Part shown: positions 55,352 through 63,115 of the stretch, piece by piece
How positions within the stretch are numbered: the first letter of the stretch is position 1
How the letters are laid out: every line of letters begins with the position of its first letter
Position numbers and translations under genes: made by a program
IMG/VR virus record: IMGVR_UViG_3300008262_000226
Span: 1-64,000 of that record
DNA length: 64,000 nt
DNA from: an uncultured virus (IMG/VR IMGVR_UViG_3300008262_000226)
Lineage: Duplodnaviria; Heunggongvirae; Uroviricota; Caudoviricetes
Reading direction: 5' to 3' (one strand)
The notes under the pieces: model-generated
Told to the model about the DNA's origin: nothing
The model's input: the letters and a program-made list of their open reading frames with translations, nothing else
Database searches by the model: none

Positions 55352-55428
<77 letters not shown>

Positions 55429-55500
55429 GGGAGATTAACTCAGCGGTAGAGTGGCTGCCTTACAAGCAGTAAGTCGTTGGTTCGAATCCGACATTTCCCA
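55429..55500 (+). tRNA. tRNA-Val(TAC)
   Basis: cloverleaf, loop CTTACAA. Confidence 0.93.
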
Positions 55501-55509
55501 TATAAGATT

Positions 55510-55740
55510 ATGAATACATACTATATCTCTTTAATAGTGCTCTGTGCGACGATATATATTATCTGGCAGGATCCAAATGTGCCAGAATATATCAACCTCA
55601 GAATAAAACTTCTTCACATCAACTTTATTCGGTGGAGAATGGCAAGAAATATGAAGCGAGAACTTGATAGAGAAGCAAAGAAAATGCAAAAAGAAATGGC
55701 AGCGTGGTTAAAAGAAAAAAATGGCAAAGATCAGATGTAA
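55510..55740 (+). CDS. small membrane protein
   Basis: ATG after tRNA-Val; N-terminal transmembrane segment. Confidence 0.6.
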   Translation: MNTYYISLIVLCATIYIIWQDPNVPEYINLRIKLLHINFIRWRMARNMKRELDREAKKMQKEMAAWLKEKNGKDQM

Positions 55741-55978
55741 TGCTTGTGGAACTGAGTTAGAAGTATACCAAGCAAATAAAAGTAAAGCATGTGGTTGTGA
55801 TAACCAAACCATGCTAAGATTAGATAGAAATGGATTGCCTATTATCACAGGTAATGATCTATCTTTGGTCACTGGTATCGAAGGTGTCAGCAAACCTAAA
55901 GAGAAAAAGCTTGACAACCCCACACCAATGGAGTATACTAAGCGCATTCCAAGAAAGATGGAGTTTGAAGTTCGCTAG
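55721..55978 (+). CDS. small zinc-ribbon protein
   Basis: CNAC...CGC. Confidence 0.65.
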   Translation: MAKIRCNACGTELEVYQANKSKACGCDNQTMLRLDRNGLPIITGNDLSLVTGIEGVSKPKEKKLDNPTPMEYTKRIPRKMEFEVR

Positions 55979-56065
55979 GAAGATTGGCTGAGAGGTCTAA
56001 AGCAGCGGTTTGCTAAACCGCCGAAGGGGTTAACTCTTCCGATGGTTCGAATCCATCATCTTCCG
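55978..56065 (+). tRNA. tRNA-Ser(GCT)
   Basis: long variable arm, loop TTGCTAA; promoter TTGACA-17-TATACT at 55911-55939. Confidence 0.93.
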
Positions 56066-56109
56066 TTGCCCTTAAGTGGGCATTTCGTAAACAGATTCAT
56101 TAAAAAAGT

Positions 56110-56472
56110 ATGAAACAATTTATTGCTCTTGCCGCTCTCCCTCTGATGGCAGCACCTGCTATGGCAGCTCCTTATGTAGAGTCGAAGACAACTACCGCTC
56201 TGGTTGATGGTGATTATACTGGTGCTCAAACTGAACTTCGTGTTGGTTATCAACAAGAAGTTGGAACTGGTGTAACCGTCTTTGGTGAAATCGGTCCTGG
56301 TTACGAGTGGCGTAATGGCGAAGATGGTCAAGGCGTTGCCGTTGGTGAAGTTGGTATCAACTTCCCTATTGCTAATCAACTCTCTGGTAAATTCAAAGTT
56401 GCTGGTGAGTATGGTTTCGATTCCGAAGTATTCGGTCTAGGTGGTGAACTGAAAGTTCGTTATAGCTTCTGA
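56110..56472 (+). CDS. small outer-membrane beta-barrel-like protein
   Basis: signal peptide, amphipathic beta strands, C-terminal RYSF. Confidence 0.7.
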   Translation: MKQFIALAALPLMAAPAMAAPYVESKTTTALVDGDYTGAQTELRVGYQQEVGTGVTVFGEIGPGYEWRNGEDGQGVAVGEVGINFPIANQLSGKFKVAGEYGFDSEVFGLGGELKVRYSF

Positions 56473-56478
56473 TAAGTT

Positions 56479-57519
56479 ATGGATCTATTAATGGGTATCT
56501 GGGAGAAGCTTCTGTTTCTCCCTTACATCATCGGCATCATGATTGTCGGTGGTCTCGTAAAACAATACGGAGTGCTTAACGAAGTATTCGTAGCACTTCG
56601 TAAAATCTTTAAGTCAAACAGACTTGTTGTTGCTGCTACCGCTTTAGCTGGTGGTGTTCTACCCATTGAAGGGCGTGTCGTTATGTCGGCACCCCTTCTG
56701 GATTCCATCGCTTCAGACAAAGCACAATCTCGTTCCAAGTTTGGCATTGTAGATTATCTTTCTACTCACCACTATTACTGGTGGTCGCCACTAGAAAAGA
56801 CTGTGGTTCTTCCGATGGCAGCATTGGGTCTATCCTATACTCAACTGTTGGGATACACTCTCGTTCCTCTACTGATTACTCTTGGTTTTGCTGGAGTATT
56901 CATCTTCAAGTATGTGAAGGAAACTGATGTAGAGATTATCCAAGAGACTCGTTCCTTTAGTTGGAATCGTCTTCTGAAAGGTTGGGCACCTATTGTTGCT
57001 ACGATGTGGTTCCTGGTTTGCTATGGCGACCCTGATATGCCTTACCTGTTCTCTGTTTGGTTTGGTGGTCTTGCTGCTTACTATTCATTCATCTGTAATG
57101 ATTGGAAGTGGGGTCGTTATATCAATTGGAAGTTTGCTGGTCTTGCAGCACTGGTTCTTACCCTTGCTGCTATCATGGGCGAGATTAAAGAACCTGTAAT
57201 GGATTACCTGAAACTGACTGCTGCTCAGGGGTCTGCTGCCCTCGTGACGGTCTCTGTGGTAGGATTCCTGGCATCGTTCGCCATGGGTTCCTCAGGTAAG
57301 TATGCTGGCATCGTCTCGCTGCTTGCCAAGGCATTTGGTCCTGGCTACTTGACATGGTTCCTCTGCGTGGAGTATGCTGGTTACATCATCTCACCGATGC
57401 ACAAGTGTCTGCTGATTGGTCAGCAATACTTTGGCACTCCTATCAAAACTTATTACAAAGTTCTTGGTATGCTAATTGCTGCATTGGTTGGTTATGGAGC
57501 ACTGACTCTAGTGTTCTAG
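56479..57519 (+). CDS. polytopic membrane protein, putative permease (DUF401/IT-superfamily-like)
   Basis: about 9-10 hydrophobic segments; THHYYWWSPL and SPMHKC motifs. Confidence 0.6.
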   Translation: MDLLMGIWEKLLFLPYIIGIMIVGGLVKQYGVLNEVFVALRKIFKSNRLVVAATALAGGVLPIEGRVVMSAPLLDSIASDKAQSRSKFGIVDYLSTHHYYWWSPLEKTVVLPMAALGLSYTQLLGYTLVPLLITLGFAGVFIFKYVKETDVEIIQETRSFSWNRLLKGWAPIVATMWFLVCYGDPDMPYLFSVWFGGLAAYYSFICNDWKWGRYINWKFAGLAALVLTLAAIMGEIKEPVMDYLKLTAAQGSAALVTVSVVGFLASFAMGSSGKYAGIVSLLAKAFGPGYLTWFLCVEYAGYIISPMHKCLLIGQQYFGTPIKTYYKVLGMLIAALVGYGALTLVF

Positions 57520-57522
57520 GGA

Positions 57523-57551
57523 TTGACAGATCTTAGACTCTCATATATAAT
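57523..57551 (+). promoter_or_regulatory. sigma70 promoter for tRNA-Ser(TGA)
   Basis: TTGACA-17-TATAAT. Confidence 0.75.
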
Positions 57552-57564
57552 ATGAGGGTCACTT

Positions 57565-57649
57565 GGAAAGGTGGTCGAGTGGTTGAAGGCTCTAGTCTTG
57601 AAAACTAGCGATGTGAAAGCATCCGTGGGTTCGAATCCCACCCTTTCCG
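57565..57649 (+). tRNA. tRNA-Ser(TGA)
   Basis: long variable arm, loop CTTGAAA. Confidence 0.93.
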
Positions 57650-57650
57650 C

Positions 57651-57774
57651 TTGGTAGTCGTTATGCAGATAGCATAGAAAGACGCCAACTTCTACTACGG
57701 GTATCTTCCGTAGTGTCGTAGATAGAGGGTAAGCCTCTGTTATATCCTTGAGGTATATTACGCTTACTCCATCA
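57651..57774 (+). ncRNA. unannotated structured RNA A
   Basis: four hairpins with complementary loops filling the tRNA spacer. Confidence 0.55.
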
Positions 57775-57848
57775 CGGAATGTAGCTCAGTTTGGTAGAGC
57801 ACTCGCTTTGGGAGCGAGATGTCGCAGGTTCGAATCCTGTCATTCCGA
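57775..57848 (+). tRNA. tRNA-Pro(TGG)
   Basis: cloverleaf, loop TTTGGGA. Confidence 0.93.
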
Positions 57849-57868
57849 TTCTTCTTTTGGAGATATTA

Positions 57869-58141
57869 ATGATTTCACAACTTGTTATTTACACCAGAGA
57901 TCAATGTGAATATTGTCGCAAACTCAAGGTTATCCTTGATAGTTTTAATGTGAAGTATACACAGTATAAACTAGATGTTGACTTTGATCGCAATCAGTTC
58001 TATAATGAGTTTGGAGAAGGTTCGACTTTTCCTCGTGTGACTCTTGATGGTCAACTGCTTGGTGGTTGCACTGAATCAATTGAATATCTAACCAGTATTG
58101 GTTGTCTGCAAGAAGAAAAAGACATGGAGTGTATGGTATGA
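57869..58141 (+). CDS. glutaredoxin
   Basis: CEYC, TFPRV, LGGCTE; GGAG SD. Confidence 0.88.
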   Translation: MISQLVIYTRDQCEYCRKLKVILDSFNVKYTQYKLDVDFDRNQFYNEFGEGSTFPRVTLDGQLLGGCTESIEYLTSIGCLQEEKDMECMV

Positions 58142-58302
58142 AAACTATTACAGAAGAAACTTTTTGCCACGACTTTGATGAAATTATGGATAAGGTAATG
58201 CTTAATAAAGAAAGTTTTATCATTTCTACATCAGATAGTAGTGATGTTCTTCTGATGCCATATGAGAATTATGAACGAATATTTAACGGGGAGTTAGCTT
58301 AG
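58138..58302 (+). CDS. Phd/YefM-like small protein
   Basis: MKTITEETF..DFDEIMDKV....ESFII......VLLMPYENY pattern. Confidence 0.5.
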   Translation: MKTITEETFCHDFDEIMDKVMLNKESFIISTSDSSDVLLMPYENYERIFNGELA

Positions 58303-58360
58303 TTGGTAGAGCGCCTGCTTTGCAAGCAGGAGGTCAGGGGTTCAAATCCCCTACTCTCCA
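58288..58360 (+). tRNA. tRNA-Ala(TGC)
   Basis: cloverleaf, G3:U70, loop TTTGCAA. Confidence 0.93.
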
Positions 58361-58372
58361 TTTAAAATTTAA

Positions 58373-58444
58373 GGGGGTATAGCTTAATGGTTAGAGCGGC
58401 CTGCTTATAACGGGTTAGTCTGGGTTCAACTCCCAGTATCCCTA
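58373..58444 (+). tRNA. tRNA-Ile(TAT)
   Basis: cloverleaf, loop CTTATAA. Confidence 0.85.
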
Positions 58445-58467
58445 TATAAAATAAACAAGGGGGTTAA

Positions 58468-58683
58468 ATGGCATATCAAAACCAAACAGATTTTGAGTAT
58501 CATCTATTTGACTTCGGAAAAAAAGTAGAGTATATTATTGCTGCTGAGATGGCAGGTAAAGAAGATGCTAATGAAGCATATAAAAAAATCAAACACTTGT
58601 TCGAAGATCTTAAAAAATTTCGTAAGCAAGAGAAGAAACAAGAACATCCATTAGACTACGATCAAATTCCTGAACGTTATTAA
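58468..58683 (+). CDS. small protein resembling a cyanobacterial hypothetical family
   Basis: FGKKVEYIIAAEMAGK...EAYKKIK. Confidence 0.6.
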   Translation: MAYQNQTDFEYHLFDFGKKVEYIIAAEMAGKEDANEAYKKIKHLFEDLKKFRKQEKKQEHPLDYDQIPERY

Positions 58684-58685
58684 TT

Positions 58686-59258
58686 ATGATTTCACAAGGA
58701 TTAGTTGAAACTGAAGATGAAGATCCTGGATTTGAGATTACTCATCTGTCATTCAGAAGACGAGAATCTTCCCAACTCTATGGTGGCCCTGTGCATTACT
58801 ATGTTGGTAATATTGTATTCCGTTTGACTAACGAGGATGCCAAAGGTCGCATGGAATACATTATGAGAGAGAATGAGAGAGTTCGTGTAGCACCAGACGA
58901 GAAGTTACACAACAAATATTATGATGGTCTTCACTTCAAGTTTGATACAAAAGAAGAAAGGGATGAAGATGGAGAAAAATTTTATCCATTAGATATCATC
59001 AACAAACATGGCATCAAAGATGAAGATGTGTTCATCTGGGGTTACCGTCGTAACATGGATCCTCTTCATGACTTCATTCAATACAATGAGAAGTTCGATT
59101 GTTACCGAATGCACGAATACTTCCAAGACACCCCAGTAGTTCGTGGTATAATACAGTATCTTCAAGACATGAAAGATGGTAAACCTAATCCAAGCCGCAC
59201 GGTCTATCATGAGCAGTTCCTCAACACGCTCACAAACCTCTGCTGGTGGTGGGACTAG
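58686..59258 (+). CDS. hypothetical protein
   Basis: 190-aa ORF ending CWWWD. Confidence 0.65.
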   Translation: MISQGLVETEDEDPGFEITHLSFRRRESSQLYGGPVHYYVGNIVFRLTNEDAKGRMEYIMRENERVRVAPDEKLHNKYYDGLHFKFDTKEERDEDGEKFYPLDIINKHGIKDEDVFIWGYRRNMDPLHDFIQYNEKFDCYRMHEYFQDTPVVRGIIQYLQDMKDGKPNPSRTVYHEQFLNTLTNLCWWWD

Positions 59259-59350
59259 AACCTGCGCCAAGTGCAAGACCGAGCACCCCCTTGACACAGA
59301 CCACTACCAAGTGGTAAAATACTTTCGTTCTGGTTTCTCCTACTATTGTA

Positions 59351-59620
59351 ATGACTGCAACAAACCAAAGCCGCGTGAAGACAATCCTTGAGCGTTTCCC
59401 TTATCGCTACGTTCAAGCAGGCACTCTTGAGATTAATGGTAAACCAGATTACCGTATTCAAAAAATGTGCTCATATACTGGTCGTTACCGTGACATGTAT
59501 CTCTGTGATAATGAAATGCAGTTCATGACAGCGATTGAAGATTTTGAGTATACCAAGTGGCTTGACCCAGACACCGTTCCATGCTATATTAAAGGAGATG
59601 ACAATGAAGAAGATGAATGA
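59351..59620 (+). CDS. conserved cyanophage hypothetical protein
   Basis: ERFPYRYV, PDYRIQK, DMYLCDN, YTKWLDP. Confidence 0.7.
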   Translation: MTATNQSRVKTILERFPYRYVQAGTLEINGKPDYRIQKMCSYTGRYRDMYLCDNEMQFMTAIEDFEYTKWLDPDTVPCYIKGDDNEEDE

Positions 59621-59825
59621 CCAAGTAAAATATCAATTGCAACGTGCAGAAGATGCACTACGTTCGGCACTTGTATTTTCTGGTGAGGAAAGTGTTTATG
59701 TAATCTCTGCTATTTCTAAGGCATTGATTGAGATTGATAATACTATGTTTGCTGAGCGTATTGAAGATGCTGCTAAGAAAGGAGATCCTGTAGCGCAAAC
59801 TTCTACTATGGTGATACTAAAATAA
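59603..59825 (+). CDS. hypothetical protein (start approximate)
   Basis: AGGAG SD near 59593; ORF track frame 59535-59825. Confidence 0.45.
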
Positions 59826-59852
59826 CTGGAAATGTAGATCTCTAAATAATTC

Positions 59853-60045
59853 TGTCTCGGGATGACATTAAAAGCGCCCTGGTGGAGTCATCCCCAATAT
59901 GCCCGTGATGGAGACACGTTAACAACCCTGGTCGGGAACCCCCTCGATGAGTTTCCAATTTCTCTAAAGAATTGGTGGTGCGGATGGGACTCTCTCCCGC
60001 CTGGTTTCTTGCCTCCAGTCAAAGGGCAAGTGGCGAGCCTGGAAT
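59853..60045 (+). ncRNA. manA-like structured RNA
   Basis: repeated GTTTC-stem-loop-GTGG modules with pseudoknots; late promoter CTAAATA at 59842; family recalled, not searched. Confidence 0.6.
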
Positions 60046-60090
60046 GGGGGTTGACAACCCCCACCACCCTCATATATAATACAGGGGTAA

Positions 60091-60167
60091 CGCGGGATGG
60101 AACAGTCTGGTAGTTCAGCGGTCTCATAAGCCGCAGGTCGCAGGTTCAAATCCTGCTCCCGCCCCCA
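60091..60167 (+). tRNA. tRNA-Met(CAT), initiator-like
   Basis: loop CTCATAA, C1:C72 mismatch, encoded CCA; promoter TTGACA (60051)...TATAAT (60075). Confidence 0.85.
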
Positions 60168-60168
60168 C

Positions 60169-60249
60169 GTCGCTGTGGCGGAATTGGTAGACGCGCTGGG
60201 TTTAGGTTCCAGTGTTTTTAACGTGGAGGTTCAAGTCCTCTCAGCGATA
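60169..60249 (+). tRNA. tRNA-Leu(TAG)
   Basis: variable arm, loop TTTAGGT. Confidence 0.9.
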
Positions 60250-60502
60250 TTGGTAGTAAGAACTGCGATAACATCAAGAGACCCTGCTACCAACTATCTG
60301 GCCAGATAGTATAAAGTTAGCCTAGTCCGAGATTGGCACGGTCGTTATGATATGCTCAAACAGACTGCTTACGTGGTCAAGCCTCTATCAGCAATCAAAA
60401 GCATGAAAAACTGGAGATTGTAACCTCCACATGTTTGTATCATGGGAGAACGCTCAAAACTACATAGTATCGTAGCAGATATATAAGTAGTGGAGAGCAC
60501 CT
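60250..60502 (+). ncRNA. unannotated structured RNA B
   Basis: multiple local and long-range helices; no ORF in the track fills the spacer. Confidence 0.5.
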
Positions 60503-60574
60503 GCGGAGTTAGTTCAGCGGTAGAACGCTATCCTTCCAAGTTAGATGTCGTCGGTTCGATTCCGATACTCCGCT
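60503..60574 (+). tRNA. tRNA-Gly(TCC)
   Basis: cloverleaf, loop CTTCCAA. Confidence 0.9.
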
Positions 60575-60597
60575 CTTTATCCTTGAGGATAAATAAC

Positions 60598-60768
60598 ATG
60601 TCACTTATTTCACAAAGAGACAGAGAAGTTGCCATAGCAGCTCTTGAAAAATATGTTGCCGATGCAGAGAATACTGAGTATTATCTGGGCACACCAAAAC
60701 ATACACCATCTGAAATCTATGCCCTTCTCAACTGGATACGATTGGAATATTTCAAACATGAAAATTAA
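60598..60768 (+). CDS. hypothetical protein
   Basis: GAGG SD; MSLISQRDR. Confidence 0.6.
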   Translation: MSLISQRDREVAIAALEKYVADAENTEYYLGTPKHTPSEIYALLNWIRLEYFKHEN

Positions 60769-60928
60769 TCTGTGGTATTGCACCCACATGAATCAATGGC
60801 GTTGGTCTCTGACTGACGACCACAGACCAATCGTTAGACAAGAAAGTGGTCAACAACCACATCTACGTGATGCAATGAATGACATTGCAAACACAGTAGA
60901 ATATATGATGGATTCTCAGCAATCCTGA
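60758..60928 (+). CDS. conserved hypothetical protein
   Basis: MKINLWYC...QWRW...QESGQ. Confidence 0.6.
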   Translation: MKINLWYCTHMNQWRWSLTDDHRPIVRQESGQQPHLRDAMNDIANTVEYMMDSQQS

Positions 60929-60934
60929 TTTTAT

Positions 60935-61007
60935 TGGGGTGTAGCTCAGCGGTAGTAGCGGGATGCTGTTAACATCAAGGTCGCAGGTTCGATCCCTGCC
61001 GCCCCAG
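60935..61007 (+). tRNA. tRNA-Asn(GTT)
   Basis: cloverleaf, loop CTGTTAA. Confidence 0.9.
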
Positions 61008-61053
61008 TTTTCAAAAAAACTCTTATAAATAAACACATTAAAGGTCGAACATC

Positions 61054-61155
61054 ATGACTAACTTCAGCAAGCAAATTATTATTTTTATGGAAAGCGATTG
61101 CCGCTATTGGCATATTGCTCAGGCCCCCGTGCTTGCTCATAAGTGGAAACGATGA
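61054..61155 (+). CDS. 33-aa peptide behind a late promoter
   Basis: TATAAATA at 61024, AAGG SD, followed by a terminator-like hairpin. Confidence 0.4.
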   Translation: MTNFSKQIIIFMESDCRYWHIAQAPVLAHKWKR

Positions 61156-61185
61156 CCGACATCTGACACATAAGCAAGATTTATC

Positions 61186-61261
61186 AGGGGGGCAGTTGAC
61201 AAAACCGCCCCCCTATTTTATTGTAGATTCATCGGTGGGGGATCCACCAGCACCTTGACAA
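61186..61261 (+). promoter_or_regulatory. terminator hairpin with embedded sigma70 promoter, then boxB/boxA-like leader
   Basis: TTGACA (61196)-17-TATTGT; ggtgg/ccacc hairpin; GCACCTTGACAA. Confidence 0.5.
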
Positions 61262-61271
61262 TTTAACCCTT

Positions 61272-61344
61272 GGGTCTGTAACTCAGTTGGTAGAGTAGCG
61301 GGCTTTTAACCTGTAAGTCGTCGGTTCGAGCCCGACCAGACCCA
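61272..61344 (+). tRNA. tRNA-Lys(TTT)
   Basis: cloverleaf, loop CTTTTAA. Confidence 0.92.
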
Positions 61345-61384
61345 TCGACCGTCATAGTTCGGTCATTAAATATAAACTATTCTT

Positions 61385-61466
61385 GGGAGGATTTCCGAGT
61401 GGCTAAAGGAATCTGACTGTAAATCAGACGGCTCTGCCTTCGCAGGTTCGAATCCTGCTCCTCCCA
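61385..61466 (+). tRNA. tRNA-Tyr(GTA)
   Basis: variable arm, loop CTGTAAA. Confidence 0.93.
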
Positions 61467-61470
61467 CCTT

Positions 61471-61543
61471 GACCCTATAGTGAAGTGGTCTATCACGCTA
61501 CCCTGTCACGGTGGTATCACGGGTTCGAATCCCGTTAGGGTCG
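61471..61543 (+). tRNA. tRNA-Asp(GTC)
   Basis: cloverleaf, loop CTGTCAC. Confidence 0.92.
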
Positions 61544-61721
61544 TTGGGAGTCAGTATTCTAACTCCCACACATTTCTTAGAGTTTGCCAGTGTGTAGAGA
61601 AATGATGTAGCAACAACTGGAATTGGGGAGGGATTTCTAACCACCATCGGATGATGGCAGGATTCATAAGGCTACGAAGCGTAATCCATAAGTGACTTCG
61701 TGTGGGATACCCCTCCCATCT
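61544..61721 (+). ncRNA. unannotated structured RNA C
   Basis: hairpins, a multibranch domain and two possible pseudoknots. Confidence 0.55.
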
Positions 61722-61795
61722 GGTCCCATCGTCTAGTCGGCCTAGGACAACACTCTTTCACAGTGTAGACACGGGTTCGAATCCCGTTGGGACTA
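61722..61795 (+). tRNA. tRNA-Glu(TTC)
   Basis: cloverleaf, loop CTTTCAC. Confidence 0.92.
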
Positions 61796-61798
61796 TCT

Positions 61799-61874
61799 CG
61801 GGGAATAGCTCAGTTGGTAGAGCACATGTCTGAAGAACATGGTGTCGGTAGTTCAATTCTACCTTCCTCGGCCA
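61799..61874 (+). tRNA. tRNA-Phe(GAA)
   Basis: loop CTGAAGA, encoded CCA. Confidence 0.85.
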
Positions 61875-61946
61875 GGAATCGTAGCTCAGTGGTAGAGCAC
61901 TCGGCTGATAACCGAGCGGTCACAAGTTCAAATCTTGTCGGTTCCA
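61875..61946 (+). tRNA. tRNA-Ile(GAT)
   Basis: cloverleaf, loop CTGATAA. Confidence 0.92.
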
Positions 61947-61950
61947 CTTT

Positions 61951-62022
61951 GGCAGTGTAGTTCAGTGATAGAACAGGAGATTCATACCCTCCATGTCGGT
62001 AGTTTGATTCTACCCACTGCCT
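61951..62022 (+). tRNA. tRNA-Met(CAT), non-canonical
   Basis: loop TTCATAC; D-loop GA instead of GG; T-loop TTTGATT. Confidence 0.7.
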
Positions 62023-62023
62023 T

Positions 62024-62094
62024 GTGATGTTAGCCTAGAGGTAAGGCAGTGGTTTGTGGAACCACCTAGATGGGTTCGATTCCCATACGTCACC
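62024..62094 (+). tRNA. tRNA-His(GTG)
   Basis: loop TTGTGGA, C73. Confidence 0.88.
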
Positions 62095-62096
62095 CC

Positions 62097-62168
62097 GCCC
62101 GATTAGCTCAGTGGTAGAGCAACTCACTAGTAATGAGTAGGTCGTCAGTTCGAGTCTGACATCGGGCT
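62097..62168 (+). tRNA. tRNA-Thr(AGT)
   Basis: cloverleaf, loop CTAGTAA. Confidence 0.88.
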
Positions 62169-62243
62169 TCTGAGGTCGCCAAGCGGTAAGGCAGCGGGTT
62201 TTGGTCCCGCCATTCGTGGGTTCGAATCCTACCCTCAGAACCA
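62169..62243 (+). tRNA. tRNA-Gln(TTG)
   Basis: loop TTTTGGT, encoded CCA. Confidence 0.9.
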
Positions 62244-62318
62244 GTTGGGTTGGTGTAATTGGTAACATCTTGGTCTCCAAAACCAAAGTTCAGAGTTCAA
62301 GTCTCTGACCCTTCGCCA
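62244..62318 (+). tRNA. tRNA-Trp(CCA)
   Basis: loop CTCCAAA; two U-U mismatches in the acceptor stem; encoded CCA. Confidence 0.82.
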
Positions 62319-62319
62319 T

Positions 62320-62394
62320 GCTCTCTTAGCTCAGTGGATATAGAGCACTTGACTACGGATCAAGGTGTCGTAGGTTCGAATCCTACAGAGAGCG
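62320..62394 (+). tRNA. tRNA-Arg(ACG)
   Basis: cloverleaf, loop CTACGGA. Confidence 0.92.
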
Positions 62395-62436
62395 TTTGGT
62401 AGTCTATGCTACCAAAAAAGATAAATATATACAATA

Positions 62437-62652
62437 CGTTCATCCCTATGGGACGGAAGTAAGCCGACTCGGAACGGATCGTTCATCTATGGAAGCAATC
62501 CTATTAACTTGCCTTCAAGCTAATTTTATTATCGGAAGAGTAGTTACTCATCCAAAATTAGATGCTCAACAAAAAAATGATATTGTTTGGGAAGTGAAAC
62601 AAGTTACAAAAAAAGGTTGTTTTATAGACGCAAAGGTTGACTGAAGGAACGC
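62437..62652 (+). ncRNA. double glutamine-riboswitch-like RNA (glnA/Downstream-peptide type)
   Basis: two CGTTCA and two GGAACG strands, CGGAAGTAA and CTGAAG E-loop halves, CGCAA junction; late promoter ATAAATA at 62421. Confidence 0.7.
62489..62644 (+). CDS. 51-aa peptide nested inside the riboswitch-like RNA
   Basis: MEAILLTCLQ...KGCFIDAKVD. Confidence 0.55.
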   Translation: MEAILLTCLQANFIIGRVVTHPKLDAQQKNDIVWEVKQVTKKGCFIDAKVD

Positions 62653-62683
62653 TCTTTAACCTAAAAAACTAAGGAGAACCCTA

Positions 62684-62821
62684 ATGTCTAAAGTAGTATA
62701 TCGCGGCGTTGAATACGATACGCAAAAGCGTTTAGAGTATCAACAGCAGATGATGCAACAACCCCAACAATACAACGAAACCTATCGTGGTGTTAAGTTT
62801 GTAAAGGAGGGTCACAAATGA
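62684..62821 (+). CDS. DUF4278-type small protein
   Basis: AAGGAG SD; MSKVVYRGVEY...TYRGVKF with two YRGV motifs. Confidence 0.8.
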   Translation: MSKVVYRGVEYDTQKRLEYQQQMMQQPQQYNETYRGVKFVKEGHK

Positions 62822-62904
62822 ACTGGCTCAATCTAATCCGCAAGCAAATTGAAAAGCAAAGAAAACTAGAGATTGCTCAATATCATATGGCAACTCTTGG
62901 ATAA
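62818..62904 (+). CDS. 28-aa peptide
   Basis: AAGGAGG SD, ATGA overlap; MNWLNLIRKQIEKQRKLEIAQYHMATLG. Confidence 0.55.
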   Translation: MNWLNLIRKQIEKQRKLEIAQYHMATLG

Positions 62905-62907
62905 AGC

Positions 62908-62931
62908 AAAGGGGCATATGCCCCCTTTTTT
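62908..62931. terminator. bidirectional-type terminator between convergent genes
   Basis: aaaggggc-atat-gccccttttttt. Confidence 0.75.
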
Positions 62932-63115
62932 AATGCCTTCTTAATGTCTGTAAGTAATCAAGCATTGCTGTTCGTATGTGCATTAGTTCATTATAACATT
63001 TCTGGTTGTGAGCACACTGTCGCAGTTCGTTGTCTGGCTTATGCACACTTTCAATGAATAGGTCTAAACCTCTATTCCATTTGTCGTTGTCTTCAATCAC
63101 GTTGCCTCCAGTCAT
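62930..63115 (-). CDS. conserved hypothetical protein
   Basis: LDLFIESVHKPD, CAHNQKCYNEL. Confidence 0.7.
   Translation of the reverse strand: MTGGNVIEDNDKWNRGLDLFIESVHKPDNELRQCAHNQKCYNELMHIRTAMLDYLQTLRRH

Follow-up and report, generated by a model that had tools for sequence, protein, structure and literature searches.

Glutamine riboswitches of the glnA type (Rfam family RF01739) have, as single aptamers, the order CGUUCA, helix P2, CG[G/C]AAGUA, a P3 hairpin, and GAAGGAACG. For the gifB riboswitch of the same family an ON-switch model has been put forward, according to which the ribosome site is released from an anti-ribosome-binding site (anti-RBS) element once glutamine binds (Klahn et al. 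2018, PMC6212724). The type-2 glutamine class has neither P3 nor loop E and binds glutamine (Huang et al. 2019, PMC6698751). In the 2010 glnA seed alignment the halves of double elements are listed as separate aptamers with an unpaired P3 region (Weinberg 2010, PMC2864571), and 157 doublets and 4 triplets have since been catalogued and called pseudo-cooperative (Sherlock et al. 2022, PMC9481103). The element described below is a leader RNA located at 62437-62676 of the window, i.e., of the whole analysed stretch of 64,000 nucleotides (nt), which corresponds to positions 1-64,000 of the 126-kb IMG/VR record IMGVR_UViG_3300008262_000226 of a T4-like cyanophage. The leader is very probably, judging by its sequence and that of its relatives, a double glutamine-riboswitch aptamer in which one core is nested within the other rather than placed beside it, and one of its hairpins accommodates an entire open reading frame (ORF).

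The leader resembles that of gifB/IF17 of Synechocystis (RF01739) in the CGUUC/GAACG helix P1, P2, CGGAAGUA, the GAAGG loop E, P3, and the anti-RBS following P1, as well as in the small DUF4278-type gene downstream and the NtcA control of the same unit. It differs in that its P3 joins distant strands, the far end of P3 bears a permuted core, and one hairpin holds a gene. The catalogued tandems (Weinberg 2010; Sherlock 2022) are the same sequences, their two cores separated by 3 nt, and are frequent in marine and phage DNA; they have been treated as independent serial units, and the accessible portions of these two papers mention neither a shared P3, nor an exchange of P1 partners, nor ORFs in P2. 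The inner core resembles the Downstream-peptide RNA (Glutamine-II, RF01704) in its CGCA junction strand and in lacking both loop E and a separate P3 hairpin; it departs from that RNA by having its P1 closed by a loop (circular permutation) and by the absence of the pseudoknot hairpin. Full-text literature searches, whose coverage did not extend to Ames & Breaker 2011 and Ren et al. 2015, found no nested or permuted glutamine riboswitch and no ORF inside one.

Topology of the two aptamer cores

The outer core is a complete type-1 (glnA) aptamer, with P1 formed by 62437-41/62647-51, followed by P2a, CGGAAGUA, and GAAG. Its P3 is a long-range helix, 62462-69/62635-42, with a second, circularly permuted core at the far end; this inner core has a P1 closed by a 3-nt loop (62472-84), P2b, and CGCAAA, but lacks loop E. 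The motif CGTTC is located at 62437 and again at 62480, GAACG at 62472 and 62647, AGTA at 62458, the P3 strands agccgact and ggttgact at 62462 and 62635, respectively, and GAA at 62643. An earlier reading of the window from its letters alone (hereafter the sequence-only reading) had placed these motifs at exactly these positions, and its coordinates for the 51-codon ORF are exact as well. It had also proposed the interlocked topology with a glnA-type outer and a permuted inner core, which is borne out by P3 covariation, P1 double mutants, and the Rfam alignment of the outer reading, as described below.

The 15-nt junction GGAACG-GAT-CGTTCA is found in at least 120 IMG/VR contigs, hence the arrangement is not due to chance. 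Among the 124 junction matches listed, including the window and loci L001-L004 (loci are numbered with the prefix L), 118 have an adjoining aptamer core and 6 are chance matches; the counts of unique tails, upstream regions, inserts, and stems given throughout refer to these listed matches. A complete 3' end is present in 115 loci. Neither hairpin is enlarged in 39 of these, whereas a long insert occupies P2b, as in the window, in 41, P2a alone in 21, and both P2a and P2b in 14. BLAST comparison with phage records revealed the full arrangement, including the ORF, in the Synechococcus phages DSL-LC03, DSL-LC02, and S-SRM01, and a compact form without the ORF, annotated as a single 99-nt 'glnA riboswitch', in S-CREM1. 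A scan of genome contigs with CGGAACGNNNCGTTCAT gave at least 120 loci, none of those listed having an aptamer context and all being chance matches, and it is uninformative on cellular genomes. Two alignments were used: A1, comprising 33 distinct compact relatives, and A3, comprising 17 window-like loci, i.e., the window's own subfamily; the natural compact homologues served for comparing aptamer readings.

The leader belongs to a self-contained phage cassette, 62399-62931, comprising an NtcA box and a host-type promoter, the leader RNA, three small genes, and a terminator. Its components, with the basis of each assignment, are as follows:

62399-62412, + strand: NtcA-type box GTA-N8-TAC, 5' of the leader (sequence; motif common among relatives)
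62426-62431, + strand: -10-like TATATA (sequence and geometry in relatives)
62437-62441, + strand: outer P1, 5' strand CGUUC, partner 62647-62651 (A1 alignment, compensatory change in L380)
62443-62453, + strand: P2a hairpin UCCC-UAU-GGGA (covariation)
62454-62461, + strand: J1, CGGAAGUA, comprising the junction strand and AGUA of loop E (Rfam glnA consensus)
62462-62469, + strand: shared P3, 5' strand AGCCGACU, partner 62635-62642 (covariation)
62472-62484, + strand: inner P1' hairpin, GAACG 62472-76, loop GAU, CGUUC 62480-84 (double mutants)
62486-62500, + strand: P2b, 5' strand, with helix I 62486-90 (UCUAU), an internal loop, and helix II 62495-62500 (covariation)
62489-62644, + strand: nested ORF of 51 amino acids (aa), two cysteines, phrog_504 (profile match, relatives)
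62615-62628, + strand: P2b, 3' strand, with helix II 62615-20, an internal loop, and helix I 62624-28 (covariation)
62629-62634, + strand: J2, CGCAAA, junction strand of the inner core, without AGUA (alignments A1 and A3)
62635-62642, + strand: shared P3, 3' strand GGUUGACU (covariation)
62643-62651, + strand: GAAG (3' half of loop E) and the outer P1 3' strand GAACG, 62647-51 (sequence, relatives)
62652-62676, + strand: putative expression platform, anti-Shine-Dalgarno (anti-SD) CUCUUUA 62652-58 and Shine-Dalgarno sequence (SD) UAAGGAG 62670-76 (predicted hairpin)
62684-62821, + strand: 45-aa gene, DUF4278-like and of the IF17-like N-terminal type, its YRG motif present twice (Pfam, phrog_5049)
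62818-62904, + strand: 28-aa ORF, phrog_545 (profile match)
62911-62931, + strand: intrinsic terminator GGGGC-AUAU-GCCCC followed by a U run (terminator scan)

The same sequence could in principle be read as two independent glnA aptamers in series, 62437-62476 and 62480-62651, the second with a long P2 loop. This agrees with the separate, P3-less halves of the 2010 seed alignment, with the classing of the 157 doublets as pseudo-cooperative by Sherlock et al. 2022 (PMC9481103), and with the Rfam matches to the first half alone (34.0 bits) and to the second halves of compact relatives (33.5-33.9 bits); moreover, the first half is transcribed long before the 3' strands, so that a local P1 may form transiently. 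However, each half has a single loop E strand: the first contains AGUA and no GAA, the second GAA and no AGUA, and a P3 hairpin is present in neither. The only GAA partner of AGUA is that at 62643-62645, so the two halves of loop E meet only in the outer reading. A pseudo-cooperative doublet is one with an expression platform for each aptamer, whereas here the cores are 3 nt apart (GAU) with no platform between them, the sole SD-sequestering element lying 3' of outer P1. A 1-nt link between the far end of an 8-bp P3 and a local P1 would probably be sterically implausible as well.

The helix joining the two halves covaries, with both-side changes at 4 of its 8 pairs in A1 and the same pattern in the A3 subfamily. 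Its terminal pair (A1 columns 41-86) is GC in 11, UA in 8, and AU in 3 relatives and unpaired in 0, and the pair at the opposite end (columns 34-94) is AU in 25, GU in 4, and GC in 3; relatives with unrelated P3 sequences retain the pairing (AGUCG/CGACU, GGAAGG/CCUUCC). A local P3 hairpin within each half is not conserved, its end pair being AU in 9 versus 16 unpaired in the first half and AU in 8 versus 14 in the second. P2a covaries at all 4 pairs, with 99.2% of cells paired in the 33 relatives. Regarding P1, compensatory changes tie GAACG(1) to CGUUC(2) and CGUUC(1) to GAACG(2), the copies being numbered in 5' to 3' order. Of the 64 matches to the inner P1' double mutant AAACG..CGUUU, 9 have an aptamer context and represent 7 unique sequences, and at these loci the outer CGUUC(1) and GAACG(2) are unaltered; the same search for natural variants of the end pair gave 40 and 30 matches, respectively, to the two single mutants, none of them in an aptamer context. 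The outer CGUUC(1) is invariant in A1, and the only locus with CGUUU(1), L380, compensates with AAACG(2) and has its inner pair unaltered.

Comparison of the readings with the Rfam glnA model points the same way. In the compact relative L013 the model treats the inner core as a 38-nt P3 insert and gives the outer reading 43.6 bits, above the gathering score of 35, versus 27.6-33.9 bits for half-aptamer readings. The nested reading is thus favoured by the P3 pairing, the failure of the local hairpins, the paired P1 changes, and the Rfam outer alignment, and two serial aptamers are a very improbable description of the leader. In the window itself the model matches 62435-62480 only (34.0 bits, E 1.4e-5), the rest of the cassette region giving no Rfam match; because of its 156-nt insert the window is not scorable in the outer reading. 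The features of RF01739 found are the CGUUC/GAACG P1, present twice, loop E (AGUA plus GAA), and P3, which is long-range and not a hairpin. With the Glutamine-II model (RF01704) the window scores 17.2 bits against a threshold of 33, and L013 25.9 bits. CGCA of J2 is invariant in A1 and A3 and resembles CGCAG of the Glutamine-II consensus, and the inner P1' hairpin is present in the minimum-free-energy fold. The shared P3 comes close to two-fold symmetry, which would be expected of a helix read at one end by each core.

A conserved structure of this kind might have another function, e.g., in RNA stability, processing, or protein binding, with glutamine binding lost from one or both cores. The lack of loop E and AGUA in the inner core and the scores of the window, which are under the thresholds of both models, fit such a function. 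Against it stands the CGUUC/GAACG helix with the ACG[G/C]AA strand, common to both solved classes and invariant in the 33 and 17 relatives; furthermore, Glutamine-II binds its ligand despite lacking P3 and loop E (Huang 2019, PMC6698751), and the context, an NtcA box and a DUF4278-like gene, is nitrogen-related. A function other than glutamine sensing is therefore improbable, and at least the outer core probably binds glutamine.

The gene inside the P2b hairpin

The 51-codon ORF, with its ATG at 62489 and its TGA stop codon at 62642-62644, lies entirely within the 156-nt insert of P2b and, from its pattern of conservation, is with high confidence a real gene. An ORF is present in all 54 unique P2b inserts, beginning with an ATG 3-15 nt after CGUUCA(2) (3-6 nt in 53 of them), and in 48 of the 54 the stop codon U[GA]A falls on the P3/loop E junction, using the last base of P3 and the first two of loop E. 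The encoded proteins, 49-92 aa in length, have a hydrophobic start and two cysteines in common; C8, C44, and D51 are invariant in 45 aligned sequences. Interior codon differences number 494, 276, and 654 at the three codon positions, with most at the third. The ratio of nonsynonymous to synonymous polymorphism (pN/pS) lies at 0.42-0.71, with 0.42 in the 51-aa group; pS reaches 0.68, with synonymous sites near saturation, and pN/pS taken alone is weak. In the coding case more weight falls on the frames being open, on the bias among codon positions, and on the cysteines being invariant.

The nested protein matches phrog_504, a family of small cyanophage proteins, with E 1.6e-5 over residues 6-49 of 51, and the ORFs nested in P2a match phrog_6471 or phrog_13397, one of them also phrog_504. 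Its AlphaFold2 model is a two-helix hairpin with a predicted local distance difference test score (pLDDT) of 84, whose structural neighbours are unnamed viral clusters in the ESM Atlas (scores up to 0.88) and uncharacterised cyanophage proteins in BFVD; the searches of these two collections gave no function for it. A separate family of P2a ORFs, 67-69 aa long (L023, L034, L052, L056, L110, and others), has a signal-peptide-like M-T-K start, a hydrophobic run, and an S-x-S/T-P-Q motif, and two cysteines are conserved here as well; these small proteins may thus be exported and disulfide-bonded.

The hairpin surrounding the gene is conserved as RNA. Pairs 1-5 of P2b helix I are paired in 46-48 of the 49 unique stems, versus shuffle means of 22-44, pairs 3-5 each occurring as several pair types (pair 4 is AU in 23, CG in 15, and UA in 8), and helix II (62495-500/62615-20) displays both-side changes at 3 of 6 pairs in the 17 loci of A3. 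This pairing and covariation indicate that the RNA fold has been kept despite the 156-nt insert. Coding and folding overlap to a considerable extent: A and U of the AUG at 62489 sit in helix I, the Cys44 codon lies within the 3' strand of helix II and pairs with codon 3, and the last five codons constitute aptamer core, which dictates the C-terminal D-A-K-x-D (GAC GCA AAx Gxx GAC). The sequence-only reading had placed a whole 51-codon ORF in the P2 loop, with the ATG in P2 and the stop codon over the E-loop, and this is supported by the P2b covariation and the 54 unique inserts. Covariation of the long-range P2 and P3, to which it had drawn attention, was found (33 compact relatives; 49 stems), and the ORF is conserved, with an open frame in 54 unique relatives and invariant cysteines.

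Group I and group II introns and dual-function RNAs also carry protein ORFs in peripheral loops of a structured RNA. The cassette differs from these in that its start and stop codons are parts of aptamer helices and loop E, and in that its ORF is housed by a ligand sensor rather than by a ribozyme. By analogy with the homing-endonuclease and maturase ORFs of introns, the nested fold could be real and the gene merely a passenger in a tolerant hairpin loop, with no regulatory coupling. Such a passenger would agree with the distribution of related-family ORFs over P2a, P2b, and both (21, 41, and 14 of the 115 loci), and relatives in the RNA libraries with a 20-nt hairpin instead of the ORF at the same boundaries give a presence/absence pattern that fits insertion at a permissive site. 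However, the position of AUG (3-6 nt after CGUUCA(2) in 53 of 54) and that of the stop codon at P3/loop E (48 of 54) are tighter than a passenger needs, and translation of these elements must physically unfold the sensor. An uncoupled passenger is therefore unlikely, though it deserves more credit than the two alternatives discussed above.

In cores without an ORF, P2 is filled across divergent loci by a nearly identical 22-nt hairpin, UUCGCUAUU-loop-AAUAGCGAA, located in P2b in L004 (660-681), L012, L019, L029, and many more, and in P2a in L001, L017, and L021. Ordinary P2 stems, unlike this hairpin, vary freely. Lake RNA libraries contain relatives with the same hairpin at the sites corresponding to window positions 62486/62628, in place of the ORF. 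The hairpin may serve to bind a protein, or it may be what the gain or loss of an ORF has left behind.

Expression platform, downstream genes, and promoter

CUCUUUA, located directly 3' of outer P1, forms a hairpin with UAAGGAG in predicted folds. Among the 107 unique tails 39 contain CTCTTTA, each together with its TAAGGAG partner. The sequence-only reading had regarded GCUCUUUAAC in this place as boxA-like; the motif is missing in 68 of the 107 tails and, where present, always faces UAAGGAG, so the boxA interpretation was given up in favour of an anti-SD element. In some relatives (L246, L259, L266, L295, L306, and L307, as well as L031, L065, L080, and L105) outer P1 is followed by a conserved element composed of GGAAACGGAUC, a hairpin, and UAAAGGU, and then by the SD; this element might represent either a partial sensor, the third in the leader, or another type of expression platform.

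The platform is followed by the 45-aa gene, whose product matches phrog_5049 (E 1e-10). Its assignment to the DUF4278 type in the sequence-only reading stands as a likeness, with two YRG motifs and 19.1 bits (E 0.0017) against Pfam DUF4278 (PF14105), and falls short as family membership, the score being below the cut-off of 25.3. The stop codon of this gene is overlapped through ATGA (62818-62821) by the 28-aa ORF, which matches phrog_545 (E 5e-6). In S-CREM1 both peptides form one 48-aa gene, composed of a phrog_5049 N-terminal part and a phrog_545 part (L004:736-882).

The promoters of the cassette are, to judge from their motifs, host-type and nitrogen-linked, not late. A GTA-N8-TAC box lies no more than 70 nt upstream in 77 of the 99 unique relatives, where about 0.015 would be expected, and 74 of the 99 upstream regions contain a -35-like hexamer; the order of box, N13, TATATA or TAAATA, N4-5, and ACGTTCA is common to L002, L027, L040, and L053. 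In the window 13 nt separate the box from TATATA, versus the canonical N22 spacing of an activator site; a consensus promoter scan of the locus found no sigma-70 promoter with a -35 element. The transcript would start at about 62436-62438. A T4-type late promoter, claimed in the sequence-only reading, was rejected: it would require TATAAATA some 6-8 nt upstream of the transcription start and its conservation along with the cassette, and the window does have GATAAATA, but TATAAATA is present in 1 and ATAAATA in 4 of the 99 unique upstream regions.

With regard to RNA data, 20 of the 23 runs listed are metatranscriptomes containing at most 0.21 of the sampled sequence words, and contigs from four RNA runs cover 62444-62515 and 62612-62827 (of 62300-63000), their source being relatives; the gaps in this cover carry no meaning. 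Upstream of the cassette, 55352-62394 is a dense array with 23 tRNA matches and a wcaG RNA (59947-60044, 102.6 bits); the last tRNA ends 5 nt ahead of the NtcA box.

Proposed mechanism and its meaning

All in all, the best explanation is a nested double sensor built around a real gene, acting as an ON switch and involving competition between sensing and translation, and we consider this combination likely. Several points weigh against it. The window's local glnA match, 34.0 bits, is under the gathering score of 35, and glutamine binding by either core is deduced rather than taken from experiment. The minimum-free-energy fold of 62433-62700 does not exceed shuffles in stability (z -0.65) and lacks outer P1, for which covariation comes from one locus. 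The shared P3 contains two conserved C.A/A.C mismatches, in 24 of 33 cells and 18 of 23 lettered cells. Core nucleotides located within the ORF are subject to coding constraint too, so that their conservation at ORF-bearing loci does not count as separate evidence. No variation occurs in the anti-SD pairs, which thus have no support from covariation, and 64 of the 107 unique tails (the 'GG/GA' class) have another platform. The NtcA spacing is non-canonical and gives no sign of control, i.e., whether activation or repression; the RNA-library contigs, being relatives' sequence, carry no information on 5' ends, strand, expression level, or translation.

The P3 mismatches are placed symmetrically in the 8-bp form of the helix: A1 columns 36/91 correspond to window positions 62464/62640, and columns 39/88 to 62467/62637. 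The window has one of them, C62464.A62640, the other position being an A-U pair, and the 5-bp form of P3 is fully Watson-Crick.

By homology with the gifB riboswitch, glutamine would stabilise outer P1 and engage the adjacent C62652; the CUCUUUA:UAAGGAG hairpin would then melt, turning on translation of the 45-aa IF17-like protein and the coupled 28-aa peptide. The anatomy of the leader suggests that the nested gene would be initiated only while inner P1' and P2b are open, either in nascent RNA, with the 3' strands made some 130-170 nt later, or at low glutamine. Ribosomes completing the nested gene would unfold P3, loop E, outer P1, and the anti-SD, and one terminating at 62642-44 would cover P3, loop E, outer P1, and probably the anti-SD. 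Since translation through the sensor elements unfolds them, sensing and translation of the nested gene would compete, and it is reasonable to suppose from the anatomy that they are mutually exclusive. Whether the two outputs are reciprocal is more doubtful, and we put this forward tentatively.

The tandem glycine riboswitch has two like aptamers placed side by side, docked by tertiary contacts, and serving one expression platform. The cassette is similar in the coupling and the single platform and different in that its cores share one helix and one is nested in the other; cooperativity is plausible from this likeness. In its fullest form the proposal is of a cooperative two-site sensor with opposite outputs, in which low glutamine would permit expression of the nested gene and high glutamine would hide its start and switch on the IF17-like peptides, two-cysteine genes having repeatedly settled in either P2 loop and taken their start and stop codons from parts of the sensor. 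This version is possible but somewhat less likely than not to hold as a whole.

The arrangement is a widespread feature, largely missed by current annotation, and constitutes a new glutamine-riboswitch architecture with a built-in gene. Standard scans miss the ORF-bearing forms, as the window, which yields one half with a sub-threshold score, illustrates. If the reading is true, this would be the first known case of a gene within a riboswitch aptamer, as well as the first aptamer pair in nature to be circularly permuted and to share a helix. If the tandems are one nested, helix-sharing sensor, their dose-response (true cooperativity), the Rfam model, and the counts need revision. A start codon, last codons, and a stop codon doubling as aptamer helices and loop E would be a rare case of dual coding, in which translation is pitted against ligand sensing. 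With its NtcA box, glutamine sensor, and IF17-like peptides, the cassette would give cyanophages their own readout of the nitrogen status of the host, and such a readout would bear on the course of infection in nitrogen-limited waters.

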